In this document: positions 9,237 through 49,589 of the stretch, piece by piece
Numbering within the stretch: the first letter of the stretch is position 1
Layout: each line of letters starts with the position of its first letter
Assembly: GCA_963766775.1 (NCBI GenBank)
Contig: CAVYBP010000002.1
Coordinates: 406,910 to 470,909, forward strand
Length of the DNA: 64,000 nucleotides
Direction of reading: 5' to 3'
Origin: an uncultured Phycisphaerales bacterium
GTDB lineage: Bacteria > Planctomycetota > Phycisphaerae > WQYP01
Made by a program: the position numbers and the translations under genes
Notes under the pieces: model-generated
Told to the model about the DNA's origin: nothing
Database searches by the model: none
What the model saw: the letters and a program-made list of their open reading frames with translations, nothing else

Positions 9237-9246
9237 CCGTCTTAAA

Positions 9247-10004: not shown

Positions 10005-10203
10005 CCTTTCCAATAATTTCCTTCTGTAACTGTCGGGAAGCGGCCTTTCACCACGAACGCACGGAGGCCCGGAGACACAGAAGGACGCACGGATATCATT
10101 ATTCCGGTGCGGGTCTCCGAGCCTCGTGCCTCAGTTGTGAAAAAATGCCCTCCCCGGCGAACCATTCTCGCTGAAGCCCCGGCCCCCAGCGCATCGAGAT
10201 TCC

Positions 10204-25253: not shown

Positions 25254-26734
25254 ATGCTGTCCGATTTTTCCGCCCGTGAAGTGCGCGACCAGATTGCCGC
25301 AGGCAAGATTTCCAGCCGCGAGGCGACGCAATACTCGCTCGATGCGATCAGCAGATTGAATCCGGAACTGCATGCGTACAACAGTGTGTTTGCGGAGTGC
25401 GCGATGCAGCAGGCGGCGGCGGCGGATGCGCGGCGGGCGGCCGGCGAAAAGGGGGGCTTGCTGGCGGGGGTGCCGATCAGCATTAAAGACAACATGTGCA
25501 CCAATTACGGCACGACGACGTGCTCGAGCAAGATGCTGGAGCATTTTCATGCGCCATATACGGCGACGGCGGTGGAGAAGTTGGAAGCGGCGGGGGCGGT
25601 AATTCTTGGGAAGACGAATCTGGATGAATTTGCGATGGGGTCGTCGACGGAGAATTCCGCGTTTGGGCCATCGAAAAATCCGTGGAATGTGAAGTGTGTT
25701 CCCGGCGGGTCTTCAGGCGGTGCGGCGGCGGCGTGCGCGGCGCGGCTTGGGTTTGGCGGGTTGGGGTCGGACACGGGCGGGTCGATTCGGCAGCCGGCGT
25801 CGCTGTGCGGGATCGTCGGGTTGAAGCCGACGTATGGGTTGGTGTCACGGTATGGGCTGGTGGCGTTTGCGTCGTCGCTGGATCAGATTGGGCCGATGAC
25901 ATTGACGGTGGAAGACGCGGCGTTGTTTCTGCAGGTGATTGCGGGGCATGATGAGAAGGATTCGACGAGCTGGCAGGGAGGTGGGGAGCGGGGGGCGGAT
26001 TATTTGGCGGAGTTGAACACGCCGATGAAGGGGCTGCGGATCGGGTTGCCGAAGGAGTTTTTTGAGGTGGAGGGTGGGGGCATGGAGCCGGAGGTGAAGG
26101 CAGCGGTGGAGAAGGCGGTGCAGTGGTACAAGTCGCAGGGTGCGACGCTGGTGGATATTTCGTTGCCGTACACGCAGTATGGGATCGCGGCGTATTACAT
26201 TATTGCGCCGGCGGAGGCGTCGAGTAACTTGCGCGGTATGACGGGGTTCATTATGGTCATCGGACGAAATCGCCTGCGGATCTTTTTGATCTGTACGCGG
26301 CGTCGCGCGGGGAGGGATTTGGGGCGGAGGTCAAGCGGCGCATCATGTTGGGGACTTATGCGTTGTCGGCGGGGTATGCGGACAAGTTTTATTTGCAGGC
26401 GCAGAAGGTGCGTGCGCTGATCAAGAAGGATTTTGATGAGGCGTTTGAGAAGTGCGACGTGATCGCGGGGCCGACGAGTCCGACGGTGGCGTTTGAGTTT
26501 GGGAGCAAGGGTGATAATCCGTTGGCGATGTATTTGTGTGATGTGTTTACAGTGACATGCAACATCGCGGGGATACCGGGGTTGAGTTTGCCGTGTGGGA
26601 TTTCGAGTGCGGGGTTGCCGATTGGGTTGCAGTTGCTGGGGCCGGTGTTTAGTGAGAAGACGCTGCTGCGGATAGGGCGGCAGTATGAGGCGGGGCATGA
26701 GTGGGGGAAGAGGAAGCCGGGGGTTTGTGGGTAA
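25254..26734 (+). pseudogene. gatA: Glu-tRNA(Gln) amidotransferase subunit A with 1-nt deletion near 26228
   Basis: It carries the amidase signature GGSSGGAAAACAARLGFGGLGSDTGGSIRQPAS. After APAEASSNL the frame must shift to read [49 protein letters not shown] (the frame of ORF 26345..26734). The sequence has aacttgcgcgg where aacttggcgcgg is expected. Confidence 0.9.
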
Positions 26735-26823: not shown

Positions 26824-27510
26824 ATGACATTTCGGCACGTGGTGTGGGGAATCGGTACGTTTTTAGCAATGTTTGCGACAGCGAGTGCGACTGAACTGCC
26901 GGTGCAGCCGACTTCAATCTCACTCAGCGATCCGAGTTTGGTGGGACATACGTTAGAGAGCCGAACCTATTCTTTAACGAATGGTTCGCGAGGCGTTGGC
27001 GCTACGGTGATGGTCGATGAACGCATCGTGAGAGAAACATCGGGGACATTGGATTTCTATTTTCGAGCATTCGAAACGCCGGGACGCAGCGAGGCGCTCA
27101 CGTCGCTGTCCGTTCAATCAAGCTCGGTGGGTGTAGGGATTGCGGCGGAATATGCCAACGATGGACCTGGATCACTCATCCCTGCCGACTCCGTATCTCA
27201 TGACACAGGGGCGGTTGAATATCTATTTGCAGTGGATTATACGAATGGGTCTCCTCCCGGATTTCCCAGCACGCCTTCTCCGATCGCTAACTTTGATGCC
27301 ACCGGAACGCGCTGGCTGATTTTGCGAACTGATACCTCGAGCTACACGAATGGTACGATTGAGTTATTCGGGTCCGGAGGCGATTTCGGCTATTCGATTG
27401 GCTCGGCCACGGTGTTTGTCCCCGCAGCGGCCGGACTGCCGGAACCATTGTCGGTGGCTTTGCTTCCGCTGGCGGTGGGGGGGTTACTCGTGCGAATGCG
27501 GCGGCGTTAA
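26824..27510 (+). CDS. PEP-CTERM sorting-domain secreted protein
   Basis: It has a signal peptide (GTFLAMFATASA) and the C-terminal GLPEPLSVALLPLAVGGLLVRMRRR. Confidence 0.8.
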   Translation: MTFRHVVWGIGTFLAMFATASATELPVQPTSISLSDPSLVGHTLESRTYSLTNGSRGVGATVMVDERIVRETSGTLDFYFRAFETPGRSEALTSLSVQSSSVGVGIAAEYANDGPGSLIPADSVSHDTGAVEYLFAVDYTNGSPPGFPSTPSPIANFDATGTRWLILRTDTSSYTNGTIELFGSGGDFGYSIGSATVFVPAAAGLPEPLSVALLPLAVGGLLVRMRRR

Positions 27511-27648: not shown

Positions 27649-27801
27649 GGGGATATACACAGAATTCTCGGTTAATAATATCGGATTTAATATAAAACGC
27701 AACGGTGCTATGGTCGTGCTATGAGTTTTTTTGGAATTATGTTGCCGGAGCGGCGGGGGTGGTGGCATGATTTGTGGGGATTTTTGATGGAGAAGTTGCC
27801 G

Positions 27802-27993
27802 ATGCGATATTTACTTGCGTTCCTCTTTCCACCTTTGGCTGTCCTGTTGTGCGGAAAACCGGGTAAAGCATTTTTGAATCTCATCCTCACCTTGTGCTTT
27901 TATGTTCCTGGCGTCATTCACGCCATACTTGTCATTTCGGAAAAAAAGGCGGATGCCCGCACTGATCGTATCGTCAAGGCGATGGCGAAGTAA
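27802..27993 (+). CDS. YqaE/Pmp3-family small membrane protein
   Basis: MRYLLAFLFPPLAVLLCGKPGKAFLNLILTLCFYVPGVIHAILVI matches the family. A GGAGAA RBS lies 7 nt upstream of ATG 27802. Confidence 0.7.
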   Translation: MRYLLAFLFPPLAVLLCGKPGKAFLNLILTLCFYVPGVIHAILVISEKKADARTDRIVKAMAK

Positions 27994-29500
27994 TCTCACA
28001 CCACTTTCCATAATCGATCGCGACTGTCAATTGACCGCTGAGTATCCCCGCCCACGACTCCCAACACCTCCCCTTGTCTCCCGCTGTCTCACGCAACCGC
28101 TGATACCCCGCCTGCGCCATCCGCTGCCTCATGGCGTCGTCATAGGCGAGCATGGTGGCCTTCTCGGCGGCTTCGGTGGAGGTTTTGCACCGAAAGCCCG
28201 TCACTCCATTTTCGATGAGGTCAGGGAAGGCGTAATCGTCCTCGACAATCGGTATGACGCCGGCACTCCACGCCTCCAGCAGCACGCGGGGGTAGTTTTC
28301 CCGACTCCCGCCTGTTTGATGGATCATTGCATGGATGCGGGAGTAGAAGTCGGCTGCGGGCACACCCCCTGGCCCCCAGGTGAGCCAGTCCAGCCCCGGT
28401 GGCGGCGAGCCGCACTTACTTTTGGCCTTGTCTCCAAAGCCCAGCACGAACGCCTTGACGGGCTTGGGAGCTTTGACCGCGGCGAAGGTCTGCCACATAT
28501 CGGCGGGGTACTTGTTCGCATCGTCACGGCTGATTCTGCCGATGCCAAAGTAGCCCTTGTCACGGACCGGGTCGAAGACGAGCGGGTTGTCGCTGTCGAT
28601 CTTGTAGAACGGTTCATAGTCGAAGACTTTGACGGGCGCGATCGTCTCAAGCTCTGCGACAAGTTTATTGCGCTGGTAGGTTGTCTGGTATCCGAATTGG
28701 GTGATCTGCCCCCGGCGATGGGCTTCCTTCTCGGCGTCGAAAAGCCACGTCATGCAGTTGAACCAAATCACTTCCCTCGGCGGGGCATGTTGCCAAATCT
28801 CCGGCAACCGCTTTAGGAATTCGCCGCTGCAAAATGATACGACGATTCGATTGCGGAACACGCACGGGGAGTAGGGGACAGTCTCACAGCCGAGGCCGTC
28901 ACACAGCTTTCGCATTTCAACCGTCGGCGAGTTGAATGGCACGAGCACCACTCGCACCCCATAGGACCGCCACAGATACACCTGGTGGAGTAGTTCGGTG
29001 TCCGCGCCCCCGTAATGCCCCGGATACCCGCCGACGTAAATCTCCATTGCGGCCGGTTTGGACTCGATGGTGGGGAATTTGAGCTTCGGCCATTTATTGA
29101 GTAGGCACGCGGACTGGACAGGCTGGCCATCGGGGTAAGCGGCGTCAACAATCCCGAAGCGTTTGCGTATGTCGTTTTTCACACAATCGCACTGGTCGCA
29201 TCCGGCAATCGCACCGTCTTTGATGACGACGTGTTTGCACGAGTTGCATACTGCGGTCTGTGCCTCACTCAGCCCCGGCGAGTAAATGGGCAGACGATGG
29301 AGTTTAAGGTTGGCGACGTTCAGCATGTTGATGGGGCGGCTTGTCGCTTTTCGATCCGCCATTAGGGCATAGGCGGCGTCGGTCAAGTAGTAAGTGATGT
29401 CAGTGTCGCGTTCCTTATCGCGCAAACGCAATGCAGCATCCAAATACCATGGATGCTTTCGATTCTCTTTCTCTACATGCTGTTTCAGAATGTGTGGCAT
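27974..29500 (-). CDS. GT-B fold (GT4-like) glycosyltransferase with Cys-rich N-terminal region
   Basis: GGSRENYPRVLLEAWSAGVIPIVEDDYAFPDLIENGVTGF resembles the GT4 E-x7-E region. The N-terminus has CNSCKH...CDQCDC. The start overlaps the upstream stop (TAATG). Confidence 0.7.
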   Translation of the reverse strand: MPHILKQHVEKENRKHPWYLDAALRLRDKERDTDITYYLTDAAYALMADRKATSRPINMLNVANLKLHRLPIYSPGLSEAQTAVCNSCKHVVIKDGAIAGCDQCDCVKNDIRKRFGIVDAAYPDGQPVQSACLLNKWPKLKFPTIESKPAAMEIYVGGYPGHYGGADTELLHQVYLWRSYGVRVVLVPFNSPTVEMRKLCDGLGCETVPYSPCVFRNRIVVSFCSGEFLKRLPEIWQHAPPREVIWFNCMTWLFDAEKEAHRRGQITQFGYQTTYQRNKLVAELETIAPVKVFDYEPFYKIDSDNPLVFDPVRDKGYFGIGRISRDDANKYPADMWQTFAAVKAPKPVKAFVLGFGDKAKSKCGSPPPGLDWLTWGPGGVPAADFYSRIHAMIHQTGGSRENYPRVLLEAWSAGVIPIVEDDYAFPDLIENGVTGFRCKTSTEAAEKATMLAYDDAMRQRMAQAGYQRLRETAGDKGRCWESWAGILSGQLTVAIDYGKWCEITSPSP

Positions 29501-30447
29501 TATGGTGGCCCCGCCACAATGGTGAGTGTTCCGGTCACGTTTACACCTGGGTCAGGATCAATTCCGCTATAGGTTGTCGAAAGGACACTGTAGGCACCTG
29601 TTGGGTCGCGCCTGTTTGACCCGCCTTTAAGCACTACGGCCCACGACGAATCAACGTCACCAAACGGGAAGCCGGGGCGGGGTCCGGGGCGGCTCAACGT
29701 CGTATGCGCATACCAATTGCAATCGGTGTTCGACCAGGCAAATTGCACCACCGATGCGATAAAAAATCCGGGAGAGCCAGTGACTTTCAAATCCGGAAAA
29801 TCATAGGGGGGACCGGGCCCTCCAAGATGGCCATAACCGGGGTCTGAGTCGTATTCAAAAAGACAATTGATGTCTCTGCCAGTCAAAGGACCCACGGTAT
29901 CGCTTGCGGTCGGGGCGTCGGTTTGACCGTCGAGGGCGAGGGTCAGCCCGCTCACTGCATGGTATTGAGTATTTTGCGGGTCACATAGGCAAATGCAGAT
30001 CGCACATGTGGAGGCTGATTGATGCTCATAGCTGGAGTCCAATGCAGGGTTACTGACGGCACTAATGATGCACTTATAACAATCGCCATTTTTTAACTGA
30101 ACGACTTGACCAACGCCGACACCGACATAGTACCCACTCAGTAACCCGCCCCCTTCGCAATTTTGCATGTCCAGAAAAGCATTGGGTCCGAATGGGTTTG
30201 AACTCGATGAAGTGGAGGAGGAAGACGATGACGAGGAGCTACTGGAGGAGGAGCTTGAAGAACTGGAGGAGGAAGATGAGCTGGAGGATGAGCTGTCGCT
30301 ACTGCTCGTGCTTCCGCTGTCGCTCGATGAGGTCGAATCGGAAGACGATGATGATGTAGAGTCCGATGAACTCGACGAGGTACTGGTACTCAGACCGCAG
30401 CACGTTGCGGTTGCTGACGAACTGCAATTTGGAATTGTGGGGCGCGA
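29500..30447 (-). CDS. poly-serine tract plus Cys-rich C-terminal domain (probably the 3' part of the 30390..31490 gene)
   Basis: The listed ORF 29500..30168 starts at the first ATG, but the frame is open to 30447. The open part encodes about 85 Ser-rich codons, including 27 consecutive Ser. Confidence 0.6.
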   Translation of the reverse strand, partial: SRPTIPNCSSSATATCCGLSTSTSSSSSDSTSSSSSDSTSSSDSGSTSSSDSSSSSSSSSSSSSSSSSSSSSSSSSSSTSSSSNPFGPNAFLDMQNCEGGGLLSGYYVGVGVGQVVQLKNGDCYKCIISAVSNPALDSSYEHQSASTCAICICLCDPQNTQYHAVSGLTLALDGQTDAPTASDTVGPLTGRDINCLFEYDSDPGYGHLGGPGPPYDFPDLKVTGSPGFFIASVVQFAWSNTDCNWYAHTTLSRPGPRPGFPFGDVDSSWAVVLKGGSNRRDPTGAYSVLSTTYSGIDPDPGVNVTGTLTIVAGPP

Positions 30448-31490
30448 TCACTTCCTGATGTGGAACTCGGCAGACTTGGGCCATCCGGGCACGTTCCGTC
30501 CGCGTTTGGACACTTACCTCCGGGGCAACCGAGAGCCTTCTTGCGTTTCTGACCGCACCATCCTGGGCAAGCGTTTTGTGTGGGGTCGGGCATGCAGATT
30601 CGATTGTCGCGCAACATGACAACTTTGAAGCTGCTGTGCTCGATTACCACATTGTATCGAGCGCCATGTTGCATGAGAATTGATGATGATTGGGTGCCAT
30701 TACCCGAACAATTTGGATCGCCAGCGTTTACCGCCGTTACCTGACTAAAGAACGCCGTTGGAACATTGGCCGATGTAGACAGTGCTGGATGGCCCAATTG
30801 TAAATCTGTGCTTATCGCTCCAACATTGCAAAACGCCTTGGCTGTGAAATCCACAAGGTCAAGGCTCTCATTGAACGTGTTGGCGAGTGCGCCAGATGCA
30901 ACTGGGAATCCGAATAAAAACCGTTGCCTTGTGGTGCCGGTGTAATCCGGTAGTTGCAAGGCATCTAAACCGACCCGCATCTCCGCATTCGCACCATCGC
31001 TTGGCGACGTGGTTAAATCCGGTGATGGCTTAGCCAAAACGCCGGTGATAAATACATCTTTATTTGGTCCCGCATCGACTCCAGGGGTCGGAAAGTAATG
31101 CACATCACTTACATCGCCGGCCCCGACTGTCACAGTTACATTGCTCGTCCCCACATGCTGATTAGTCATGCTTTGACCAGTGGGAAATGCGAATATGAAA
31201 GAACCGTCCGCGGAGGTCGTTTCAACATGCGCCGTGTAGTAAATGGTCCAATTAGAGGGGCATGGGTAGTTGGGGCAAGTGTCACTCCCATCAATTTTTA
31301 TCAGCCCGATTTGAAGTGATATGTCAGCCGTCATCCCCAAGTCCGATGGATCATGGTGGTTGGTAGCGTCAGGATTTGCGTGAAAGCAATAAAAGCAATT
31401 GCCAAGACCGCGTGAAGGGCCGACGTTAACCTTGTCACTTGGGACGCCCTGAGAGCAGCAGTATTTACAGCAAGCCGCTGAGACGGGCAT
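30390..31490 (-). CDS. Cys-rich tail-distal protein (putative tail fibre / receptor-binding protein, N-terminal part)
   Basis: The gene lies downstream of the tape measure. Its N-terminus has CCKYCCSQG and its C-terminus has CPGWCGQKRKKALGCPGGKCPNADGTCPDG. Confidence 0.55.
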   Translation of the reverse strand: MPVSAACCKYCCSQGVPSDKVNVGPSRGLGNCFYCFHANPDATNHHDPSDLGMTADISLQIGLIKIDGSDTCPNYPCPSNWTIYYTAHVETTSADGSFIFAFPTGQSMTNQHVGTSNVTVTVGAGDVSDVHYFPTPGVDAGPNKDVFITGVLAKPSPDLTTSPSDGANAEMRVGLDALQLPDYTGTTRQRFLFGFPVASGALANTFNESLDLVDFTAKAFCNVGAISTDLQLGHPALSTSANVPTAFFSQVTAVNAGDPNCSGNGTQSSSILMQHGARYNVVIEHSSFKVVMLRDNRICMPDPTQNACPGWCGQKRKKALGCPGGKCPNADGTCPDGPSLPSSTSGSDRAPQFQIAVRQQPQRAAV

Positions 31491-31498: not shown

Positions 31499-32581
31499 CT
31501 AACTTGAGCTGGAGCTATCGGGAACTTCCTGCGACGAATTCATGGCGTTGGTGATGGTCCAATAAGGTGTCGGCGGGGTTGTGCTGGTGTCGTAGCCACG
31601 GAATCGCACGACAATAAAAGCGCCGTTCGGTAGCGGAAGCAAGGCGCAATTTCCACTGTCAATAGTGCCATCCGATTGCTTGACGTTGGTATTGCCGGTG
31701 CCGATGGTTCCGGTGCCAGTGAAGGTGTTGAGGCTTTCGGCGGAACTGAAGGCGATGAGGGTATTACTTCCTGAACCGCCCCACGTCCCGCCAGCCGAAG
31801 CCCCGGAACTCATATTCCAAGCGCCTAGCTGGATGGTATATTTCCACCGGATCGCACCATTGATCGCTGTTGGATCGGCGACGATCTTTGCATCGGATGT
31901 TTCACGGCCGCCAGCGGTGATTGTGTAGTAGGTCCTGGGCGGCGTGGTGCCGCTGTCCACTCCTCGGACCTCGACAGTGACGTAATCACCTACCAGAATG
32001 CCAACGCGAGGATTATCAAAGTAAGCCGAAGCGTCTGTGCCCCCGCTATCGTCAGTCCATGCCCCTTTTGAGGAGCCCGATGGGTTATCCCAATGTCCAA
32101 TTTGTATCTTGAAAATGACATCCGGGGTGGCGGCGGTGTTTTTGGTTATCGCGGTGACTTTGGCCTGAATTAAGTTGTTGTCTCTTGAGAATCTGTTGCT
32201 CCGTATCCATTGGGATGGTCCTGAATCCCAAACCCTCGTGAATCTAAGCCACACGACTGGTGTTCCTGCGACTGCCCCCCCGCCGCCTCCAAACTCGTCA
32301 TCATTGATCGCAAAATTGTCGCTCGTCGTCCCGCTTTGTCCGGACGGCATGTCGTCAAAACCTGTTGTGGTTTCGCGTTGCTCAGTCCACGCATAATGGT
32401 TCACACCGCTGACGACAGTGGGGCTGGCGGCAATCTTTGCCCAACATCCCGCATTCGCTTCCCCGTCCTGGCTTCCGCTCGGCCCGCCCACAAAGTTCGT
32501 AGGCGTCCTCTCGAACGCCTTCACTGCACGAGCGATGCGATTAACTTCTTTGGCTGCGAATCCGTAAACGGCGTCTGGCAT
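31499..32581 (-). CDS. tail-tip/baseplate-like protein with three internal domain repeats
   Basis: Units of about 100 aa end in RGVDSGTTPPRTYYTITAGG and RGYDTSTTPPTPYWTITNA. The C-terminus is DSSSSS. The start overlaps the upstream stop (TAATG). Confidence 0.5.
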   Translation of the reverse strand: MPDAVYGFAAKEVNRIARAVKAFERTPTNFVGGPSGSQDGEANAGCWAKIAASPTVVSGVNHYAWTEQRETTTGFDDMPSGQSGTTSDNFAINDDEFGGGGGAVAGTPVVWLRFTRVWDSGPSQWIRSNRFSRDNNLIQAKVTAITKNTAATPDVIFKIQIGHWDNPSGSSKGAWTDDSGGTDASAYFDNPRVGILVGDYVTVEVRGVDSGTTPPRTYYTITAGGRETSDAKIVADPTAINGAIRWKYTIQLGAWNMSSGASAGGTWGGSGSNTLIAFSSAESLNTFTGTGTIGTGNTNVKQSDGTIDSGNCALLPLPNGAFIVVRFRGYDTSTTPPTPYWTITNAMNSSQEVPDSSSSS

Positions 32582-33480
32582 TATGCGAATCCAAAACCGG
32601 CGAATGACATCGGTTTGTAAGGCTTAAAAGTGAGCGTTGCAGGCGTGTCCGATGAATCCGCCTTGCCCACACCACTGCCATCCAGCGGCCATGGCTTGTC
32701 GGTCTTTATGGGTGGGCTCGCCGGGTTGTCGTCAGCCATCATGATCGGGTTGAGGTTGCCGCTTCCGTCCAATTCGTTGAAGCCGACATCCGCAAGTGTG
32801 TCGTCCCACGATTGACGGAGTTTGAGAACGATGGTTTGTTCCCTGTAGGCTATACCGTTTGTTAGCTTGAAGGGCCCTGCGCTCATTCCTGAAATGATCG
32901 CCCGATTCGCAGCAACGGTGTACCCATCAATGGTGAACGCGTCGTTGTTGACCGCCTTTCCGTTGGTGCCATCGCCGCAATAAGTGATCGCGGTGGCGGG
33001 GCTGAATGCTGCGACATTCTTTTTATAGGTCACAACCACCGTGCCAGTTTCGCGCTCAAGTAGCTGCTCAAACGGTTGGCCGGCGGAGTTCACCACCGGC
33101 TTTGGCGTCGGCGAATTATCCAAAAAATAGGTTTGGGTGGCGTCGGCAAAATCCCACGTGATTTCCGCAGGAACGCTCAGTGGGTTTTGAAAATCTGTCC
33201 GGTCAGAATAATCGACCTGCACCTGCCAAATGGTGCCAACCACAGAATCCTGATCATCCCACGCTTTTACGGTGATTGATTTCACGCGGCGTGGGTATGT
33301 GGCCACTACATCCTCGGGCAAAACCTGTGAGTAAATTGGGATAGATGTAGCGGTTTCCGCAATCGCGGGTGCGGTGCGAACGTTGTAGAAAACTAAGAAG
33401 TATCGCGTTGCAATTGCTTCGTCCTTTGTGCGATTCGTCGTCGCCAATTGGGTTTGTTCTTTGGTCGTCAGATAGGCCAC
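32581..33480 (-). CDS. putative distal tail protein
   Basis: It is the first gene after the tape measure. No motif was recognised. It ends in FAGFGFA. Confidence 0.45.
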   Translation of the reverse strand: MAYLTTKEQTQLATTNRTKDEAIATRYFLVFYNVRTAPAIAETATSIPIYSQVLPEDVVATYPRRVKSITVKAWDDQDSVVGTIWQVQVDYSDRTDFQNPLSVPAEITWDFADATQTYFLDNSPTPKPVVNSAGQPFEQLLERETGTVVVTYKKNVAAFSPATAITYCGDGTNGKAVNNDAFTIDGYTVAANRAIISGMSAGPFKLTNGIAYREQTIVLKLRQSWDDTLADVGFNELDGSGNLNPIMMADDNPASPPIKTDKPWPLDGSGVGKADSSDTPATLTFKPYKPMSFAGFGFA

Positions 33481-33490: not shown

Positions 33491-35614
33491 CTATGTGAAC
33501 GTCGCCACAGCGAGGAGCGGCTGGCGCGTGTTTTTTTCGATCTTGTCTAAAAAGGTTTGGTTGCGGCGTTCGTTTTCATCGCGCCGGTTGTCCGAAATGA
33601 GCGTGCCACCGGGCGATGCGCTGGCTCTCACGGGGGCAGCCACCGGACGTGGGGCGGACGCTCCCGCCGGCGAGGAAATTGTTGCAAACTGGAATGCCAA
33701 AGCCTGTGCCTCCGCGCTCCCCGCGTGAATCGCTTTTGCAAGTTTAGGCTCAATCGTCACGGTGAGGGTTTGCGGGTCGAGTGACGTTTTGAGGGGCGAT
33801 GGTTGTTCGATTTTTGGAGCTTTAATCGTTGGGGCGGCCACAGGGTGGAAAAGGTTCTTGAAAAAATCGCTCACACCTTTTGCGCCCTGCTCAGCTTCCT
33901 GCTGGCGCTTCGCAATGTGGTCCGCCAATCCATCCGCGAAATTGTTTTCGAGATAGTTGTTTTCATCTTCAAGCTGCTTTTCTAGTTCGCCTTTTTCCCG
34001 TTCCGCGATGCCGGGCCATTCAATGACGGTTTCTTCAAAGCCCTTCGTCAATGGAGTCCACACGTCGCTCCACTTTGTTTTGCCGCTGATGAGGCCTGGC
34101 AAATTAGTGAAAACGGCTGCAATGTTGTGTCCGAGATTCCCAAAAATGGTGGTGGTGAAGTCGTAGAAGTTCTGGAACTTCGACACTAAAACGGCGATTG
34201 CGTAGCCAACCGTGGTTACGATGACTTCATTAAAAATGTATTCAATTTGGTTCCCAACGCGCACCACAACTAGCGCCACCTTTGTACCAGCAAGTTCAAA
34301 GAAGTCCTGCCAGTGCGTGATCGCGTATTCAACTGTGTCAAAAACCGCCGTCAAGCCGTTTTTCATGTCGTTCCCGACATCAATTATCTTCTCGAACACG
34401 GTGGTGGTGTCCGCACCCATTTCAGTCGTAGAACCGGTAATGAGTTCCGCCCCTGAGTCCCAAATTATGACAATTCCTTGCCACAGTTGTGATGCAAGTT
34501 CCTCAATAGCGCCCCACACCGCGGACAGCGTGTTCCAGATCGCGAGGCCATACGCCACATTGCTTTCAACGATGGATTCCCAGCGGCTCGAAAACGCCTC
34601 ATATAGGCTTCCAAGAATCGGCGCGATGAAGTTGTAAATGGATGTCCAGGTGTTGGAAATAGATGAATAAATTTTGGCCATCGCTCCGCTGATGTTCGGC
34701 TCAATCATTTCCCATGCGTTGGTGACGAAGGCAACCGTCCTGGTGATGACTGGGGCGATGTAGGTATAAATCCCCGACATAGCGCCCGTAATGTTCCCCA
34801 CGATCCGTTGGATGGCGGGGACGGCGGCACTGAGGCCGGCAGTGAGTTTGTCGGCCGTAAATTGCACGAATGGGGCGAAGGCAATTGCGATGGTTCTGCC
34901 GATGCCAACGAAAACAGATTTGAATCGGTTCACTGCTTCATTCGCCCGCTCAATGCGGGATGCATCCAACCTGCTGAACGTGATTCCGAGTCGCGATGCC
35001 TCGCTCTGCATGTCGCCGATTGCGTTGCTACCTTGGTTCAAAAGCGGGATAAGGGTCTGTCCACTTTTACCGAATACGTCCATCGCTGCGGCAGCCTTCT
35101 GTGCCGGATTCTGAATCTGGCTGATCGTCTGCGCAATTTGTTTGAACGCATCGTCCGGAGATTCGTTCTGCAACGTCTGGAAATTCAGGCCCAGCTTGTT
35201 AAACGTCTCCACCGCCTCTTTTGATCCGCCGTTTGCCTTCCCCAGCGTTTTGAACATCTTCTCAAACCCGTTGGTCAATTCCTCGTCTTCAACACCACAA
35301 ATCTCTGCGGCATGCTGAAAGCCCGTGAGGCTCTCTGTGCTGATGCCGAGGCGATCTGAGAGCTTGGCAATATTGTCGATCGCTGCAAATTGCCCTCGGA
35401 CGCCGAACCCCTGGGTGATCGCGCTACCAATGGATTCCAAAGCGGTTCCAACAATGCTTGCAATGCCGGTGATGGCACCGATTTTCGCGCCGGCACCGAG
35501 AATGCCGCTCACAAAGCTGTTGACCGATTCGACGGCGTTTCCGGAGAAGGCTTTTGAGAAGTTGCCGATATCTCCGAACAGGCCGACGCTGAGAGATGTG
35601 ATTTGTTTTGCCAT
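33491..35614 (-). CDS. tail tape measure protein
   Basis: The 707-aa protein is Ala/Gly/Ile-rich and helical and sits after the tail chaperones. GISTESLTGFQHAAEICGVEDEELTNGFEKM is a typical TMP N-terminal region. Confidence 0.8.
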   Translation of the reverse strand: MAKQITSLSVGLFGDIGNFSKAFSGNAVESVNSFVSGILGAGAKIGAITGIASIVGTALESIGSAITQGFGVRGQFAAIDNIAKLSDRLGISTESLTGFQHAAEICGVEDEELTNGFEKMFKTLGKANGGSKEAVETFNKLGLNFQTLQNESPDDAFKQIAQTISQIQNPAQKAAAAMDVFGKSGQTLIPLLNQGSNAIGDMQSEASRLGITFSRLDASRIERANEAVNRFKSVFVGIGRTIAIAFAPFVQFTADKLTAGLSAAVPAIQRIVGNITGAMSGIYTYIAPVITRTVAFVTNAWEMIEPNISGAMAKIYSSISNTWTSIYNFIAPILGSLYEAFSSRWESIVESNVAYGLAIWNTLSAVWGAIEELASQLWQGIVIIWDSGAELITGSTTEMGADTTTVFEKIIDVGNDMKNGLTAVFDTVEYAITHWQDFFELAGTKVALVVVRVGNQIEYIFNEVIVTTVGYAIAVLVSKFQNFYDFTTTIFGNLGHNIAAVFTNLPGLISGKTKWSDVWTPLTKGFEETVIEWPGIAEREKGELEKQLEDENNYLENNFADGLADHIAKRQQEAEQGAKGVSDFFKNLFHPVAAPTIKAPKIEQPSPLKTSLDPQTLTVTIEPKLAKAIHAGSAEAQALAFQFATISSPAGASAPRPVAAPVRASASPGGTLISDNRRDENERRNQTFLDKIEKNTRQPLLAVATFT

Positions 35615-35949
35615 TAATTGGCTCCAAGTCTCGCGACGTGTCTTTCGTAGGCTCGCATGGATCGTTCTCGGTATTCTTCTTGCGTCGGCGGGGCTTTAGC
35701 CTCGAAAGTGAGCATGTAATCACGTTCGTCAAGCCGCTTTTTTCCAGATGCAACTTGCAACGTTGCCCATACTTGGCGGGCCATCCGCATATCTGCCCGC
35801 TCCTCGCCCCACGGCTCGACTGCGTAGAATTCCTTCCACTCACTCACTTGTCGCGGAGAAAGGATCGTCTCGAGCATGTCGGGATGAGGTACACCTACGG
35901 CGAGGCAGACCCGGAAAAGGAAGCGATTTTCCGGGCTTAAGATTTTGGG
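35614..35949 (-). CDS. tail assembly chaperone, frameshift-extension (gpT-like) part
   Basis: The -1 frame is open without stops from the slippery site at 35949 through the listed ORF 35614..35877. Confidence 0.65.
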   Translation of the reverse strand, partial: PKILSPENRFLFRVCLAVGVPHPDMLETILSPRQVSEWKEFYAVEPWGEERADMRMARQVWATLQVASGKKRLDERDYMLTFEAKAPPTQEEYRERSMRAYERHVARLGAN

Positions 35950-36263
35950 TCGATGGCCTCCTTTGTCTGCATTCCTGAATGTTCAAGAACCGCTTTCACG
36001 ATATTGTTGAGGGTTCCGATACCCAGTGCGTTGAGGGCTTCTGGAGCCTCTTCGGCGGTAAGCAAATTGGAACCAGCTTCATCCACTAAACACCGCTGCG
36101 CGATAAAAATAGCCGCGTCGGCATTTTTTTCCTTGAATTCGTTTGAAAGCGATTTCGCTTCGGCGACGGTCAATTCACGAACCCGCACCGCTCCCAAGCC
36201 ATCAATTTCGACGGACTTGGTAACGATAGCGCGTTTGCTGAGGAAGGTTTCACGAGTGAGCAT
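35937..36263 (-). CDS. tail assembly chaperone (gpG-like)
   Basis: The 108-aa acidic protein lies between the major tail protein and the tape measure. Confidence 0.65.
   Translation of the reverse strand: MLTRETFLSKRAIVTKSVEIDGLGAVRVRELTVAEAKSLSNEFKEKNADAAIFIAQRCLVDEAGSNLLTAEEAPEALNALGIGTLNNIVKAVLEHSGMQTKEAIDPKS
35943..35949 (-). promoter_or_regulatory. -1 programmed ribosomal frameshift slippery heptamer C-CCA-AAA
   Basis: The minus strand reads gaC CCA AAA tct taa. The heptamer sits two codons before the gpG stop. Confidence 0.65.
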
Positions 36264-36301: not shown

Positions 36302-36745
36302 TTAGGCTCCGGGAACGGAAGTTCCCAATGTTGCGCTGAACACGGGTTTCGTGGTCAGTTTGAGCGTAATCTGATTTTTGATCGCTTCGTCTTCTGTTTT
36401 GGTTTCGGTTCCAAATTTCTTGAGGTAGCCGCTGAATGTCCACCCCGCGCCGTCAGGGTAAACCTCGGCGTAGTCGTAGATGTTCCCGTCTCCGAACGTC
36501 GCGTAAATTGCGGCGGCCTGGGTCTTGTTGTAAATCACGTCGAACTCTTGTGTGCCCGGCTCGATCATGCCGGGTTTGTACTCGTGGGTGTTGCCAGGGC
36601 TGTCGTTATTGGTGATCTTCACGTCCCCAACCTCGGGCTCTGGGCCCTTGAGGTCGATAGACGCGGCAAACTTCACCCATGTGGTTGTTCCGGTGGGGGC
36701 ATGATAGAGCTGACTGGCGTAACCGAGTGTTGAGTTGGTTGGCAT
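36302..36745 (-). CDS. major tail protein
   Basis: MPTNSTLGYASQLYHAPTGTTTWVKFAASIDLKGPEPEVGDVKITNNDSPG resembles TP901-1/phi13-type tail tube proteins, and the position fits. Confidence 0.7.
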   Translation of the reverse strand: MPTNSTLGYASQLYHAPTGTTTWVKFAASIDLKGPEPEVGDVKITNNDSPGNTHEYKPGMIEPGTQEFDVIYNKTQAAAIYATFGDGNIYDYAEVYPDGAGWTFSGYLKKFGTETKTEDEAIKNQITLKLTTKPVFSATLGTSVPGA

Positions 36746-36758
36746 TTTCCGGCGCTCC

Positions 36759-37175
36759 TTAATGGTAGTAATCAATGGTCAATTCAAGCCGCACACGTTG
36801 CGGCGGTTTTGTTTGTCCCTCTTCAACAGGCTGATGGTCGTCGCTGATGTCTGTGACGCGGATACAACCAATTCGTATCCCTGAAAATGTTCCGCTCACG
36901 CCGTCAAGAGCGGCCTCGGCGGCGTCCGCGATGGCTCGGGCGGTTAACAGGTCATCGGCGGACGCATAGAGGTAGAGGCGGCATTGCCGCAAACTCGCTG
37001 GGCCGTCGTTGCTGTACTGTTTCTCGGTCCCGATCCTTTCGTGATACATTTTTGGGCGCGCGTTTTTATCCGCACCCGTGGCAGTCGAAATGCGGTTACC
37101 AATGAGGGCAAACACACCGGAATCCGCGATGAGCATCGCAGTGAGTGCGCCTTCGACTGTCTGCAATGTGGGCAT
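36759..37175 (-). CDS. tail completion / tail terminator-like protein (DUF3168-like)
   Basis: The call rests on position and size. MPTLQTVEGALTAMLIADSGVFALIGNRI is a typical N-terminus. Confidence 0.55.
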   Translation of the reverse strand: MPTLQTVEGALTAMLIADSGVFALIGNRISTATGADKNARPKMYHERIGTEKQYSNDGPASLRQCRLYLYASADDLLTARAIADAAEAALDGVSGTFSGIRIGCIRVTDISDDHQPVEEGQTKPPQRVRLELTIDYYH

Positions 37176-38988: not shown

Positions 38989-40311
38989 TTACGGGTGAAC
39001 GTAGTGTTTGACCGGGTGCATTCCGGCGTCGATCAAATTGCCGTCGATGCGCTGGTACATCATGATTCCGATCTGGAACTTGTCGGCGTAGCGTTCCTGG
39101 AACCGAACGAACTGCATGCCCTTGACCGTGCGGACCTTGTACTTGGAGAAGTCGCCGAACACGATGGATTTATTGCCCGTCGCGATCTGCGCCATGTCCT
39201 GATTGATCCCGAATGGGTAGCCGTTGATGCGGTCCGGGTCACTGCCATTGATGCCCTCGGTGGTTCCACCGGCGAGGAAGAGCGGGCGACCGTTGCTATC
39301 CACGAGCTTTTTGATGGCCAGCAAGGTGGTATCGTGGAAGAGGAACTTGGCCTTCGGACGATAGGCCGGGTCGATGGAGTGAATGAGGGTGAGGATTTCA
39401 CTGTACGCGATGGCGGTAGCGGACGCCGCGGTAACGCCCAGCGTGGTCACCGTCATGAGGCCGGTCGGCTGAGTGGTCGGGCCGGTACCGTTAGTGAAGA
39501 GGCTGTTCTTGCGACGGCCCAAACGCTCGGCAGCAGCCGCTTTGATGTAGCTCTCGATGTCAAAACCCGAGTCCTGCAAAAGCATGATCGGAATAAGCAC
39601 GATGCCGGAGTCAACAAGATACGCGCCCAACGTGAGCGACCCGAACGTGGGGTCCTGCGTGCTGGTGGCGGTGGTGTTTTCGGCGAGATTTTCGCCGCTG
39701 TTGGCCACGTCGGTCATGCTGGGCAAGGTGAGGGGATGGCCGGTGTCGGTCTGGTAGGTGGTGGTGTCCACGAAGTTCAGCAAGTCGCCCCACGCCTTTT
39801 CAGCAACTTCCAACTGCGTGGAAAGTTCCGTGGGGATCGTGACGCCGCCGGCAGAGCCGGTGACGAGCGACAGGGCGCGCTTGTTCTCGCTGTCGATCTT
39901 CGACTCTTCGTATTCCTGAAACGCGCGTTCCTCTTCGGTGTGGTGGGCCATCGAGCCATTCATAATGACCTTGCGGAGCGATTCCTTGCGCAGGCTTCGC
40001 GCCTTGGCCGGGTCCATCTTGGTGAACTTCTCCTCGGCGGCGTTGTCCGCGCCGGTGATGTCTTCCCGTCCGCCGCGTCGGGCGTCGGGCTTGATTTCAT
40101 TCATTTCCCGGTCAGCGTCAAGCTGGCGCTCGATACGTTCGATGTCGATTTTGAGGGTGTCGCCTTCCTTGTGGCGTTTCTCAAACTCGGCATTCTCCTC
40201 CGTGGTGAACTCCCGCTTTTCAGCGGTCACTTTGGTGAGGATGGCGTTGGCGCCATCGAGTGCGGCTTTGCGCTGGGTGCGTTTTTCTTTGAGGGCAATC
40301 GTGAGAGACAT
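38989..40311 (-). CDS. HK97-family major capsid protein
   Basis: The ATG at 40311 is preceded by ggagaa. A coiled-coil delta-like N-terminus (MSLTIALKEKRTQRKAALD...) is followed by the HK97-fold core (GYPFGINQDM, FGDFSKYKVR). Confidence 0.85.
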   Translation of the reverse strand: MSLTIALKEKRTQRKAALDGANAILTKVTAEKREFTTEENAEFEKRHKEGDTLKIDIERIERQLDADREMNEIKPDARRGGREDITGADNAAEEKFTKMDPAKARSLRKESLRKVIMNGSMAHHTEEERAFQEYEESKIDSENKRALSLVTGSAGGVTIPTELSTQLEVAEKAWGDLLNFVDTTTYQTDTGHPLTLPSMTDVANSGENLAENTTATSTQDPTFGSLTLGAYLVDSGIVLIPIMLLQDSGFDIESYIKAAAAERLGRRKNSLFTNGTGPTTQPTGLMTVTTLGVTAASATAIAYSEILTLIHSIDPAYRPKAKFLFHDTTLLAIKKLVDSNGRPLFLAGGTTEGINGSDPDRINGYPFGINQDMAQIATGNKSIVFGDFSKYKVRTVKGMQFVRFQERYADKFQIGIMMYQRIDGNLIDAGMHPVKHYVHP

Positions 40312-40353
40312 GGAATTCTCCGGCTTGCGCCGACGGTCCCCGCGATTTGCGGT

Positions 40354-40415
40354 AGCCCAAAAGCAAAAGCACGGGCCGTCAGCAAGGTTTTTAATCTTGC
40401 GAACAGCCCGTGCTT
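40354..40415 (-). terminator. terminator-like hairpin in the protease-capsid spacer
   Basis: The minus strand has AAGCACGGGC...GCCCGTGCTT (40415-40406 / 40376-40367) with an inner GCAAG/CTTGC stem, followed by TTTGCTTTTGGG. Confidence 0.4.
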
Positions 40416-40562
40416 GTCTCGGCAATGCCTCGGGTCTGCGTCTCACGTTTCCCGCGTCGTCGTCTCTGCGCCGTTCATCGGGGTCGTGGTGGGCTCGGGT
40501 TTTTCGATTCACCAACTCTATAGGTTGGGATACTCTCCGCAATGGTTTCGATTACAAACCCA

Positions 40563-41171: not shown

Positions 41172-41176
41172 GCGGC

Positions 41177-42915: not shown

Positions 42916-43103
42916 TATTGCTCCTCTGGTTTGGATGGCGGCGTAGGCCGACCGCTCGTGATCGCTTCGGCCAATAGGAATCCGCCCCCGACAATGAGAG
43001 ATGCGGGAAAATAAATCAGCCCCGCGCCCACGGTGATGCTGGTGGCTCCGAGGACTGCGATGATCGTGCTGGGCGGAATATTCGGCATTTTTGGCATTTT
43101 CAT
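42915..43103 (-). CDS. small membrane protein between terminase and portal
   Basis: The 62-aa protein has two hydrophobic segments. The ends abut or overlap the neighbouring genes by 1-4 nt (ORF coordinates). Confidence 0.45.
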   Translation of the reverse strand: MKMPKMPNIPPSTIIAVLGATSITVGAGLIYFPASLIVGGGFLLAEAITSGRPTPPSKPEEQ

Positions 43104-48123: not shown

Positions 48124-48139
48124 TTTTTATCCTTAAAAA

Positions 48140-49588: not shown

Positions 49589-49589
49589 T

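Follow-up and report, generated by a model that had tools for sequence, protein, structure and literature searches.

Why does a glycosyltransferase gene lie at the end of a phage tail operon, directly behind a gene that encodes 27 consecutive serines? This question was raised by a 64,000-nucleotide stretch of DNA (the window), which carries a siphovirus-type prophage in whose late operon the genes of a distal tail protein and a glycosyltransferase (GT) come last. The prophage genes comprised those of the terminase small and large subunits, portal, protease, major head protein, connector proteins, major tail protein, chaperone and tape measure protein, the last at 33491..35614 on the minus strand (phrog_9483, a PHROG tape-measure family, E 6e-48). 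Two further minus-strand ORFs lie between the tape measure gene and ORF1, the first half of the tail gene: that of a 299-aa tail-tip protein immediately after the tape measure gene (32581..33480), which had no family match, and that of a 360-aa tail-tip protein (p360, 31499..32581), which ends ...PDSSSSS and has a homologue at 7045..8136 of the related locus L001 (E 1.5e-7).

The distal tail gene occupies 29500..31490 on the minus strand, after the tape measure gene, as the last structural gene of the prophage, and it is split in the assembly into two ORFs. ORF1 (30390..31490, 366 aa as called, 16 Cys) encodes the N-terminal Cys-rich part; it begins MPVSAACCKYCCSQG and ends in the Cys cluster CPGWCGQKRKKALGCPGGKCPNADGTCPDG, and its counterpart in L004 has 846 aa and begins MAGVYWCDNCCDY. 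ORF2 (29500..30168, 222 aa from its ATG, 9 Cys) encodes a C-terminal Cys-rich domain with the motif CAICICLCD, and the Cys motifs quoted for both ORFs in the first-pass annotation were present in the translations. Translation of 29500..30450 on the minus strand gave a stop, then SRPTIPNCSSSATATCCGLSTSTSSSSSDSTSSSSSDSTSSSDSGSTSSSD, then 27 Ser, then TSSSSNPFGPNAFLDM..., and the frame was open for 93 codons upstream of the ORF2 ATG (30169..30447) with neither a stop nor an ATG, GTG or TTG, as that annotation had described. ORF1 terminates within this open Ser frame, which is in the -1 frame relative to ORF1 and shares 56 nt with it. The 27-Ser run itself (30214..30294, minus strand) uses all six Ser codons (TCC 12, AGC 4, TCA 4, TCT 3, AGT 2, TCG 2), and since Tandem Repeats Finder returned just one 12-nt unit in 2.1 copies, the tract is not a DNA repeat, in agreement with the original reading. 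It forms part of a Ser-rich linker of about 75 residues (30199..30423, minus strand), in which S(3-5)D units are followed by the homopolymer and which we propose as an O-glycosylation substrate. A six-frame scan of the 64 kb found just two further Ser runs of at least six residues, one of 6 and one of 9. The Ser runs previously noticed in two other phage proteins were found as SSSSS at the C-terminus of p360 and as nine consecutive Ser near the C-terminus of a 98-aa early-region ORF (56826..57122, minus strand).

Next, the split of the tail gene was analyzed. A single inserted base anywhere in the frame-overlap zone (30391..30450, minus strand) generated one frame open from 31490 to 29500, with CCCC at 30439..30442 and AAA at 30428..30430 as candidate sites of the missing base. 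The repaired protein has 663 aa and 28 Cys, three of them in the translated overlap/linker stretch, and this bears out the earlier suggestion that one 1-nt indel separates the two ORFs from a single protein of about 660 aa. In agreement, gatA, an essential host gene, is interrupted by a one-base deletion between ...APAEASSNL and ARYDGVHYG..., and the portal gene is split with the shift in the same direction as in gatA and ORF1/ORF2 (portal profile positions 42-157 at 42469..43170, positions 159-511 at 41177..42574). Moreover, L001, the nearest relative, which is tied to the window by its GT (57% identity) and the p360 homologue, has at the tail-gene position a single 616-aa ORF that encodes 29 Cys and 10 poly-Ser tracts. 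Because gatA and the portal gene are split alike, the split between ORF1 and ORF2 most likely stems from a base missing in the assembly, and the tail gene would be one coding sequence.

We consider it quite unlikely that the split is genuine, which would mean that the prophage is decaying, that ORF1 and ORF2 are separate products with the Ser stretch untranslated, or that the true gene is an ORF on the other strand. The Ser frame lacks a start codon in the assembly, and the split portal gene can be read in the same way; after mononucleotide shuffling, 5.6% of sequences of the composition of the Ser frame remained open, and an acidic ORF at 30167..30619 on the plus strand is open, has an ATG and was chosen by a gene caller in another assembly of the region. 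However, the same type of deletion in the essential gatA makes an assembly error the simpler account, the poly-Ser tracts of the relatives sit inside long ORFs on the operon strand, the scrambled Ser codons favour selection on the Ser reading, and a plus-strand ORF would oppose the direction of the whole late operon. A programmed -1 ribosomal frameshift fusing ORF1 to the Ser-ORF2 frame, yielding one short and one long product as tail chaperone genes do, would suit the -1 frame of ORF2 and the 56-nt overlap; it is very unlikely, given that the overlap has no X XXY YYZ slippery heptamer, that related phages have one continuous ORF, and that the shift has the same direction in gatA and the portal gene, for which no programmed frameshifting is expected. 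No homologues of ORF1 or ORF2 were found among 5.8 billion proteins, nor among 1.84 billion proteins, and by its gene position the 663-aa tail protein is probably a receptor-binding or fibre protein.

The last prophage gene (27974..29500, minus strand) encodes 508 aa, and its start overlaps the ORF2 stop in the TAATG reported in the first-pass annotation. No promoter or terminator was found between the two genes, and the GT is translationally coupled to the tail gene. Its 3' end runs into the convergent Pmp3 gene of the host (27721..27993, plus strand), and the integrase (62847..63920) lies far away. The protein matched Pfam PF00534 with 36.6 bits (threshold 26.4) and has 401 homologues. Its catalytic core (residues about 150-495, 28016..29053, minus strand) contains an invariant EX7E (E401, E409) and the motif GR(I/V)SRDDxxK, and no membrane-type segment was found in the protein. 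Foldseek matched the AlphaFold2 model to BshA, HepE, PimB', PglA, SdgB and TarM, and a profile search of PDB sequences returned BshA with E 3e-11; by both fold and sequence the neighbours belong to GT4. Collectively, these data identify the 508-aa protein as a soluble GT4-type (retaining) glycosyltransferase of the GT-B fold, which upholds the GT4-like GT-B signature first assigned to it. Of the AlphaFold models that had been proposed as a check, that of the GT was confident, with a core pLDDT >90 and a GT-B fold, but ORF1/ORF2 gave a pLDDT of 34. The N-terminal extension of the GT (about 150 aa, 29054..29500, minus strand) carries the Cys cluster CNSC...CDQCDC, was modelled with low confidence and had no detectable homologues; it stands where L001 has an Erv1/ALR domain. 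The fold leaves the acceptor open, with T4 DNA alpha-glucosyltransferase and lipid or small-molecule GT4 enzymes scoring equal to SdgB. UDP-GlcNAc or UDP-Glc serves as donor for its closest relatives of solved structure.

A second, GT-A-like enzyme had also been proposed at 49590..50366 (minus strand), and this assignment is unproven. The product is a conserved 258-aa phage protein that matched Pfam Glyco_tranf_2_4 at E 0.058, and a PDB profile search gave nothing meaningful. Among its more than 1000 homologues, none has a Pfam domain and one was named 'glycosyltransferase family 2' by its source; D97 and D99 in LHLDADIVLP, a D-A-D motif, are invariant.

To relate the GT to poly-Ser beyond the window, 86 non-redundant loci with a GT homologue were analyzed, and a Ser run was defined as at least 8 consecutive Ser. 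Such runs were present in 17 of 177 GT-adjacent ORFs (9.6%) and in 1 of 426 ORFs at 6-10.5 kb (0.2%), their density dropping steeply with distance from the GT inside the same loci. An ORF with a run lay within 3 kb of the GT in 34 of the 86 loci, and about half of the loci had no run within 10 kb. The longest runs had 94, 65, 59 and 46 residues; in the first of these, the codon entropy was 2.50 of 2.58 bits and no codon occurred more than twice consecutively. Such scrambled Ser codons argue for selection at the protein level. The 45 poly-Ser carriers fell into 20 unrelated clusters (protein families), and in the relatives the poly-Ser ORF and the GT were usually separated by -28 to +18 nt. In L011, two proteins encoded beside the GT have poly-Ser tails at the C-terminus, one a capsid cement protein and the other a minor tail protein; in L006-L010, the GT is part of a glycan-building cluster with HtrL_YibB, a PF11397 GlcNAc transferase and a CmcI-like methyltransferase, adjoining a poly-Ser protein; and L015 and L064 have GT2+GT1 fusions. 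The pairing is found again in some bacteria and in dozens of uncultured phages, the hosts of the relatives being probably Planctomycetota-like and other environmental bacteria.

Within one tail-protein family, all 14 poly-Ser members had a glycosyltransferase just downstream, of which two were seen only as the first 38-57 residues since the contigs end within the gene. In one of these members, L141, a GT25/sulfotransferase fusion replaces the GT4-type enzyme. In contrast, no homologue of the GT of the window was detected near any of the 11 members without poly-Ser, two of which lie on contigs that stop less than 500 nt downstream, and a Pfam screen of the neighbours of eight such members found a glycosyltransferase of any family in 1 of 76 ORFs. 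The poly-Ser members are related most closely to one another, and this co-occurrence reflects few evolutionary events. Together with the enrichment at adjacent positions and the 20 unrelated carrier families, it lends weight to the initial idea that the GT and the Ser tract are linked.

The best-supported reading, which we judge from the sequences to be a little likelier right than wrong, is that the GT O-glycosylates the Ser linker of the tail protein and so coats the virion, the poly-Ser tract being its putative acceptor. The product would be a protein of about 663 aa in which a Cys-rich N-terminal part and a Cys-rich C-terminal domain are joined by the Ser-rich linker, whose roughly 75 residues include 27 straight Ser. 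Late in infection, the soluble GT would use a nucleotide sugar as donor in the cytoplasm and add O-linked sugars to the linker serines while the tail protein is still there, and the assembled virion would carry a densely glycosylated, mucin-like spacer. If this is true, the benefit to the phage could lie in shielding from proteases or antibodies, in a more soluble or stiffer linker, or in adhesion, and the recurring pairing would point to an undescribed route by which virus particles are coated with sugar. In our literature search, a Ser homopolymer substrate of this kind was not found described for phages.

The position of the GT in the prophage could suggest lysogenic conversion, with the GT as a moron acting on a host envelope glycan (LPS, EPS or glycolipid) and the poly-Ser serving only as a flexible tail-fibre linker. 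The GT is the terminal prophage gene, adjoining Pmp3 of the host and distant from the integrase, and a terminal place at the host junction is typical of this role too. GT4 enzymes often use lipid-linked or envelope acceptors (PimA, PglA, WaaG), and where homologues of the GT occur on long bacterial contigs, cellular genes and GT2 enzymes surround them. This alternative seems weakened, and we regard it as unlikely: the GT is co-directional with the tail gene, overlaps it in TAATG with no promoter or terminator found in between, and is without a membrane segment; its homologues are placed likewise in phages that bring replication genes of their own, such as L004 with a DNA polymerase and ThyX; and adjacency to 20 unrelated poly-Ser families, capsid proteins included, would be left unexplained.

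Doubtful, too, is the reading that the GT serves the phage on another acceptor (another virion protein, the host receptor or a cell-wall precursor), with the poly-Ser as an unmodified spacer and the two found together only through both ending tail modules. Here the fold, which does not disclose the acceptor, and the half of GT loci without long Ser runs are in favour, as are the polyserine linkers that occur in bacterial multidomain enzymes (genome papers PMC2386152 and PMC2699552). The steep fall of Ser-run density away from the GT in the same loci argues against it, as do the tail family that pairs poly-Ser with a glycosyltransferase even where one member has swapped the GT family, and the capsid proteins of L011, whose poly-Ser tails beside the GT have no tail-fibre context. 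Glycosylation of phage DNA, as by the T4 alpha- and beta-glucosyltransferases, is a known role of phage glycosyltransferases (PMC12619734), and the T4 alpha-glucosyltransferase (1xv5) ranked 23 among the structural matches; nonetheless, this target is extremely unlikely, with the gene in the tail operon and outside the replication module, no hydroxymethylated-base gene among the prophage ORFs scanned, and the poly-Ser link unexplained.

Finally, virion O-glycosylation by the GT was compared with the closest known systems. BshA, whose acceptor is L-malate, shares the EX7E and the GT-B fold with the GT and is its best match (2jjm, 3mbo and 5d00 at E about 1e-11, Foldseek E 3e-13). Identity is only 13-16%, however, and the GT adds the 150-aa Cys-containing N-terminal extension; it was rejected as a BshA, with 22.8 bits against the NCBIfam BshA model (cut-off 273.7). 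In secreted carbohydrate-active enzymes of Saccharophagus degradans, Teredinibacter turnerae and Cellvibrio, long Ser homopolymers join folded domains (PMC2386152, PMC2699552). The carriers in the module are instead phage structural or large Cys-rich proteins with an adjoining GT gene, and in the literature searchable here no dedicated glycosyltransferase was reported beside the polyserine-linker enzymes.

The cytoplasmic GT4-type GT-B enzymes SdgA/SdgB and GtfA/GtfB glycosylate long disordered Ser-rich repeats of Gram-positive adhesins (PMC7948813, PMC6973325). As in these systems, the enzyme gene adjoins that of the putative substrate. The tract of the window contains S(3-5)D units, and SdgB and GtfA/Gtf1 were among the structural and sequence matches of the GT. 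Membership in the SdgA family was rejected (NF047880 16 bits, cut-off 800; 4pqg E 0.034), and neither a GtfB partner nor an accessory Sec system was seen. The proposed substrate differs in being a virion protein that is never secreted, and the runs of the module consist of Ser only, in place of SD or SAS-type repeats. In the mycobacteriophages Che8, Corndog and Myrna, structural proteins of the phage are modified in the cytoplasm by glycosyltransferases that the phage itself encodes (Freeman et al. 2023, as cited in PMC12363180 and PMC12619734), with the virion glycans on flexible terminal regions of surface-exposed subunits. A kinship to this system at the level of the enzyme did not hold: a tblastn search of 50,697 deposited phage genomes, mycobacteriophages included, returned no homologue, indicating that the GT of the window is a different enzyme with no sequence-level relation to any deposited phage glycosyltransferase. 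The targets differ as well, being the C-termini of capsid and tail-tube subunits in mycobacteriophages and, as we propose, a Ser homopolymer in an internal linker of the distal tail protein here, whereas the relative L011 resembles the mycobacteriophages in having terminal poly-Ser tails on its capsid cement and minor tail proteins.

The end of the late operon (27.9-35.6 kb, - strand) runs from the tape measure protein (33491..35614, -), which matched PHROG tape-measure families with a best E value of 6e-48, through two ORFs without a family match (32581..33480 and 31499..32581, both -) to ORF1 (30390..31490, -), ORF2 (29500..30168, -), and the 508-aa ORF encoding the candidate glycosyltransferase (GT; 27974..29500, -). 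The Cys motifs that the first-pass annotation had quoted from ORF1 and ORF2 were found in the translations, and so was the TAATG overlap between the ORF2 stop and the start of the 508-aa ORF. Translation of 29500..30450 (-) showed a stretch of 93 open codons above the ORF2 ATG, and this reads SRPTIPNCSSSATATCCGLSTSTSSSSSDSTSSSSSDSTSSSDSGSTSSSD, followed by 27 Ser and then TSSSSNPFGPNAFLD. The 27-Ser run is real (30214..30294) and, as had been claimed, all six Ser codons are used in it (TCC 12, AGC 4, TCA 4, TCT 3, AGT 2, and TCG 2). An origin of the tract as a simple DNA repeat was discarded, since Tandem Repeats Finder reported a 12-nt unit in 2.1 copies and nothing else, and all six codons are present. 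When the 64 kb were searched in all six frames, the other runs of at least six Ser were one of 6 and one of 9 residues. The two further phage proteins said to carry Ser runs were also recovered, one with SSSSS at its C-terminus (31499..32581) and the other with 9 Ser (56826..57122).

The codons ATG, GTG, and TTG are all absent from the 93-codon stretch, so the only way to translate the Ser tract is by reading on from ORF1, the two frames overlapping by 56 nt. ORF2 is in the -1 frame relative to ORF1, as expected from one missing base. A single base inserted anywhere in 30391..30450 generated one open frame from 31490 to 29500, with a product of 663 aa and 28 Cys (hereafter, the repaired protein). 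Two short homopolymers lie in the overlap, CCCC at 30439..30442 and AAA at 30428..30430, and if the missing base belongs to the C run, the junction reads ...GPSLPSSTSGSDRAPTIPNCSSSATATCCGL.... The essential host gene gatA (25254..26734, +) is also broken, at 26200..26260 (AAC TTG [G]CG CGG, between ...EASSNL and ARYDGVHYG...), and continues in the -1 frame; the portal gene (- strand) is split in the same direction into 42469..43170 and 41177..42574, which cover portal-profile positions 42-157 and 159-511, respectively. Because gatA is essential, its disruption argues for an assembly error rather than gene decay, and since it is broken by a one-base deletion, single-base deletions are present in this assembly, at least three in 64 kb. 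The first-pass annotation had proposed one protein of about 660 aa, arising from either a 1-nt indel or a programmed -1 shift. The gatA and portal breaks, in the same direction, support the indel, whereas the programmed shift was rejected because the overlap contains no X XXY YYZ slippery heptamer. It is highly probable that ORF1 and ORF2 are a single gene from which one base is missing in the assembly. A second assembly of the region (Logan contig of ERR11571141) is silent on the frameshift because the contig begins inside the Ser tract; in its counterpart of window 30167..30450, the gene call was for an acidic antisense ORF instead of ORF2.

No homologue of the concatenated ORF1 and ORF2 was found among 5.8 billion proteins, nor of ORF1 among 1.84 billion representative proteins, and neither ORF had a match in Pfam or PHROGs; both are therefore orphans. 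Similarly, phmmer gave no similarity between ORF1 or ORF2 and the poly-Ser carriers of the related loci. Structure prediction, which had been recommended for both partners, returned a confident GT-B core for the GT, but the single-sequence model of the repaired protein had a mean pLDDT of 34 and was unusable. By gene position alone, the ORF1/ORF2 product is a candidate fibre or receptor-binding protein.

The GT4-like GT-B signature attributed to the 508-aa protein held in the domain scan, in which residues 385-468 matched PF00534 (Glycos_transf_1) with 36.6 bits (gathering score, 26.4); NCBIfam gave sub-threshold matches only. A large protein collection contained 401 homologues, nearly all of about 340 aa, with matches confined to residues ~150-490 and identities of 42-57%. 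In an alignment of 27 homologues, E401 and E409 (SRENYPRVLLEAW) were invariant, and the motifs GGADTEL, NCMTW, GR(I/V)SRDDxxK, and TGGSRENYPR were also found. The two residues make up EX7E, a motif of GT4 enzymes located in the C-terminal domain. The AlphaFold2 model built from the homologue alignment had a pLDDT above 90 over residues ~150-495 and displayed a two-Rossmann GT-B fold. When compared with the PDB by Foldseek, it matched BshA, HepE, PimB', PglA, SdgB, T4 alpha-glucosyltransferase, and TarM at 9-16% identity, the top matches all being GT4 GT-B enzymes with target-normalised TM-scores of 0.62-0.69. In agreement, a profile search of PDB sequences retrieved BshA (E 3e-11), and a viral structure library gave generic GT-B matches only, at identities of at most 15%. 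The enzyme is thus predicted to be a retaining GT4-type GT; the modelled fold sets its class and does not give its acceptor. The protein has no membrane-type segment, with a maximum 19-residue Kyte-Doolittle mean of 0.82 versus 2.41 for Pmp3. Its first 150 residues (29054..29500, -) had no homologues, were modelled with low confidence, and contain a CxxC...CxxCxC cluster (CNSC...CDQCDC).

The remaining prophage genes were named by PHROG and Pfam scans, and included the small terminase (44463..45281), the large terminase (43100..44827), the head protease (40563..41270), the major head protein (38989..40542), adaptor, head-closure, and tail-completion proteins, the major tail protein (36302..36775), which has no Ser run, and the tail chaperone (35937..36263). 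A tyrosine integrase (62847..63920, -) and an HTH regulator (61362..62507, +) are found at the prophage end opposite to the GT, and the host Pmp3 gene (27721..27993), convergent with the GT, overlaps its 3' end; the GT is therefore the last prophage gene. A search for an attachment-site repeat of at least 12 nt common to the prophage's GT end and 50-64 kb found none, and there was no tRNA integration site, the window being devoid of tRNA genes. The junction on the integrase side is probably outside the window. On the host side, the protein encoded at 26824..27510 (+) ends in a PEP-CTERM-like sorting signal, ...GLPEPLSVALLPLAVGGLLVRMRRR.

The 258-aa ORF at 49590..50366 (-), earlier put forward as a GT-A-like enzyme, matched Pfam Glyco_tranf_2_4 below threshold (E 0.058), had no PHROG family match, and gave no meaningful match in a PDB profile search. 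It belongs to a large family conserved in phages, in which a D-A-D motif is invariant (D97 and D99, LHLDADIVLP), and one homologue carries the source's name 'GT family 2'. Its GT-A (GT2-like) identity is unproven. Just upstream of the terminase genes, 46531..49852 (-) contains two large ORFs: that of 530 aa has a GDSL/SGNH esterase domain (E 1.6e-17), and that of 570 aa gave weak CBM6 and calpain-like matches. Phage carbohydrate esterases are often receptor-modifying enzymes, so a place ahead of the packaging genes is unusual for the esterase ORF. The start of the 570-aa ORF and the 258-aa ORF overlap by 263 nt, and overlaps of roughly 100 nt or longer occur between several further pairs of adjacent ORFs, at 50.3-51.6 kb and at 37.6-38.7 kb. 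The overlaps at 48140..50366, 50.3-51.6 kb, and 37.6-38.7 kb may be further single-base errors or miscalled starts.

Next, we compared the window with loci of uncultured phages and bacteria that were collected by their GT homologue or, for some, by a tail-protein domain. The taxa of the closest GT homologues were Planctomycetota and Polyangia, which, taken with the PEP-CTERM-like signal of the host protein, gives a hint as to the type of host. GT homologues stand beside the structural operon, in the same place as in the window, in L001, L004, L014, and others, and the two closest, in L001 and L004, are both at the ends of phage tail modules. In L001, a tape-measure-sized ORF is followed by ORFs of 277, 107, 363, and 616 aa, the GT (57% identical), and a holin-like gene. 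The 363-aa protein is homologous to that of window 31499..32581 (E 1.5e-7), and the 616-aa ORF (8140..9990) has 29 Cys and ten tracts of at least five Ser. In place of this ORF, the source's gene caller had recorded one gene of 287 aa and another on the antisense strand. Poly-Ser genes are handled badly by gene callers, and the miscalls in L001 and in the second assembly imply that poly-Ser virion proteins are probably under-represented in protein databases. L004, a phage contig of 58 kb, encodes a DNA polymerase and ThyX of its own, and its GT is preceded by an 846-aa protein with 37 Cys, ten Ser tracts, and the start MAGVYWCDNCCDY.

These two relatives also carry an Erv1/ALR sulfhydryl-oxidase domain (PF04777) adjoining the tail protein with 29-37 Cys. 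In L001, it is the N-terminal domain of the GT (10001..11569), and in L004 it is encoded by a separate gene (9411..9989) between the Cys-rich protein and the GT. The N-terminal 150 residues of the window GT hold the place of the L001 Erv1 domain; their identity as Erv1/ALR was rejected, as BLASTP showed no similarity past the junction with the GT core, and no Erv1-like ORF was found anywhere in the window. Our literature search retrieved nothing relevant on poly-Ser proteins or sulfhydryl oxidases in phages, and no report of a phage gene for such an oxidase next to that of a Cys-rich tail protein. As far as the searched literature shows, the Erv1/ALR link in the closest relatives would be new for phages.

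To quantify the association between poly-Ser and the GT, scans with the GT alignment yielded 44 viral and 80 genome loci, which were reduced to 86 by clustering the GTs at 90% identity, and ORFs were called by a simple longest-ORF rule. ORFs with at least 8 consecutive Ser accounted for 17/177 (9.6%) of those less than 300 bp from the GT, 9/162 (5.6%) at 0.3-1.5 kb, 10/199 (5.0%) at 1.5-3 kb, 10/376 (2.7%) at 3-6 kb, and 1/426 (0.2%) at 6-10.5 kb. Such an ORF was present within 3 kb of the GT in 34 of the 86 loci, and a long Ser run was absent in about half of the GT loci. The longest runs had 94 (L028), 65 (L015), 59 (L026), 46 (L006), and 41 (L014) residues. With Ser/Thr-rich parts masked, the 45 poly-Ser carriers fell into 20 clusters with no similarity between clusters. 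They included, in L011, a capsid cement protein (4342..4812) ending in 26 consecutive Ser and a minor tail protein (8525..9670) ending in 29 and located 331 nt upstream of the GT, and, in bacterial genomes, very large Cys-rich proteins such as one of 3309 aa and 95 Cys in Paraburkholderia nodosa (L070). The L028 carrier (1458..3089) is a 543-aa Cys-rich phage protein in which the 94-Ser run is accompanied by a second long one. The codon entropy of the 94-Ser run was 2.50 of 2.58 bits, and the same codon occurred at most twice consecutively; these scrambled codons extend to relatives the first-pass argument that the Ser tract is selected at the protein level.

The association was also seen within one tail-protein family. 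An alignment (A2) of the ~290-aa N-terminal domain common to the L014, L016, L027, and other tail proteins was used to search viral contigs. Among the 14 poly-Ser members, a GT homologue followed directly in 13; in two of these (L135 and L136), the contig ends inside the GT gene, with the first 57 and 38 residues visible. The 14th (L141, 7910..11722) is followed by a fusion of GT25 and sulfotransferase domains and not by a GT4-type enzyme. The substitution of an unrelated glycosyltransferase suggests that it is glycosylation itself that goes with poly-Ser, and the fusion hints at sulfated glycans on this phage tail protein. The 11 members without a Ser run, mostly of only ~300 aa, had no GT homologue, two of them (L140 and L148) being uninformative as their contigs end less than 500 nt downstream. 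In a Pfam screen of the neighbours of eight loci lacking a Ser run, one of 76 ORFs belonged to a mannosyltransferase family and none to another GT family. Since the poly-Ser members are most closely related to one another, the co-occurrence goes back to few independent events.

In other relatives, the GT belongs to larger glycan modules. It is the last gene of a multi-enzyme cluster in L006-L010 (about 5500..11000), with HtrL_YibB, a PF11397 GlcNAc transferase (E 1e-68), a CmcI-like methyltransferase, and a 338-aa ORF (327 aa in L008/L009 and absent in L010), and an 836-917-aa protein with 25-46 consecutive Ser is encoded near this cluster. GT2+GT1 fusions were found in L015 and L064. The family is also cellular: when 100 ORFs were scanned around 12 genome loci on long contigs, the neighbours included response regulators, GT2 enzymes, a rhamnosidase, and further cellular genes. 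A tblastn search with the GT core gave no match at E 1e-5 in 50,697 deposited phage genomes, and no cultured system is therefore at hand.

The known roles of phage GTs are DNA glycosylation, host serotype conversion, and virion glycosylation (PMC12619734), and of the three, virion glycosylation would be the best fit to the window. It is favoured because the GT is soluble; because neither a promoter nor a terminator separates it from the last tail gene, to which it is coupled; because its position is kept in phages with lytic-type gene content, such as L004; and because Ser homopolymers accompany the GT in surface-exposed virion proteins that are unrelated to one another. Taking the model as a whole, we lean slightly towards a GT that O-glycosylates the Ser linker of the tail protein. 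A broader joint reading, which we put forward tentatively, is that of a widespread, uncharacterised family of poly-Ser O-glycosyltransferases combined with Erv1/ALR-assisted maturation of tail proteins. The GT family would be common to uncultured phages, prophages, and some bacteria, and codon-scrambled Ser homopolymers of 10 to 94 residues would be turned into mucin-like glycan brushes on tail fibres, capsid cement proteins, and giant Cys-rich surface proteins. The phage would bring both oxidative folding, through Erv1/ALR, and glycosylation into the bacterial cytoplasm, where the Cys-rich tail protein would be matured. To our knowledge, secretory-pathway-like treatment of viral proteins has so far been associated with large eukaryotic viruses.

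If real, virion glycosylation at poly-Ser would provide a sequence-level predictor of glycosylated virion proteins. For glyco-engineering, it would offer a candidate enzyme/tag pair, as proteins can readily be given a poly-Ser tag. It would also explain a gene class routinely mis-annotated by gene callers, and would raise the question of what a tail-fibre glycan brush does in host recognition or virion protection.

By analogy, the closest mechanistic parallels are SdgA/SdgB and GtfA/GtfB, cytoplasmic GT4 enzymes acting on Ser-rich repeats of Gram-positive adhesins (PMC7948813, PMC6973325). The window GT had no match to the SdgA/SdgB model NF047880 at E ≤0.01, its homologue P0003 scored 16 bits against a cut-off of 800, and SdgB ranked 22 among the Foldseek matches, no better than other GT4 enzymes. 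SdgA/SdgB act on long (Ser-Asp)n repeats; the window tract has S(3-5)D units and then pure Ser. Many S(n)D units were found in L001 and L141, and a strict SD dipeptide repeat in none of the three. Regarding the GtfA/GtfB type, neither a second GT-B enzyme nor a SecA2/SecY2 component was found among the scanned prophage ORFs; the window differs in having one GT beside the substrate, and the match to Gtf1 (4pqg) had an E value of 0.034. With these NF047880 and 4pqg scores, membership of the GT in either family was rejected.

Experimental demonstrations of virion glycosylation come mainly from mycobacteriophages, in which it changes recognition by antibodies. As in those systems, the GT of the window is encoded by the phage, within or beside the structural operon, its gene here overlapping the stop of the last tail gene. 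The window differs in the enzyme, which has no homologue in deposited phages, and in the type of substrate, since the mycobacteriophage glycans are on C-terminal regions of capsid and tail-tube subunits, whereas the Ser tract of the window is an internal linker of a candidate distal tail protein. The C-terminal poly-Ser tails of the L011 capsid cement and minor tail proteins are, by their placement, the closest analogue of mycobacteriophage C-terminal glycosylation. Collectively, the locus comparisons suggest a second virion-glycosylation system, unrelated to that of mycobacteriophages and maybe much more widespread, whose marks would be a dedicated GT4-type enzyme, a Ser-homopolymer substrate visible from the sequence, and occurrence in phages of many environmental phyla.
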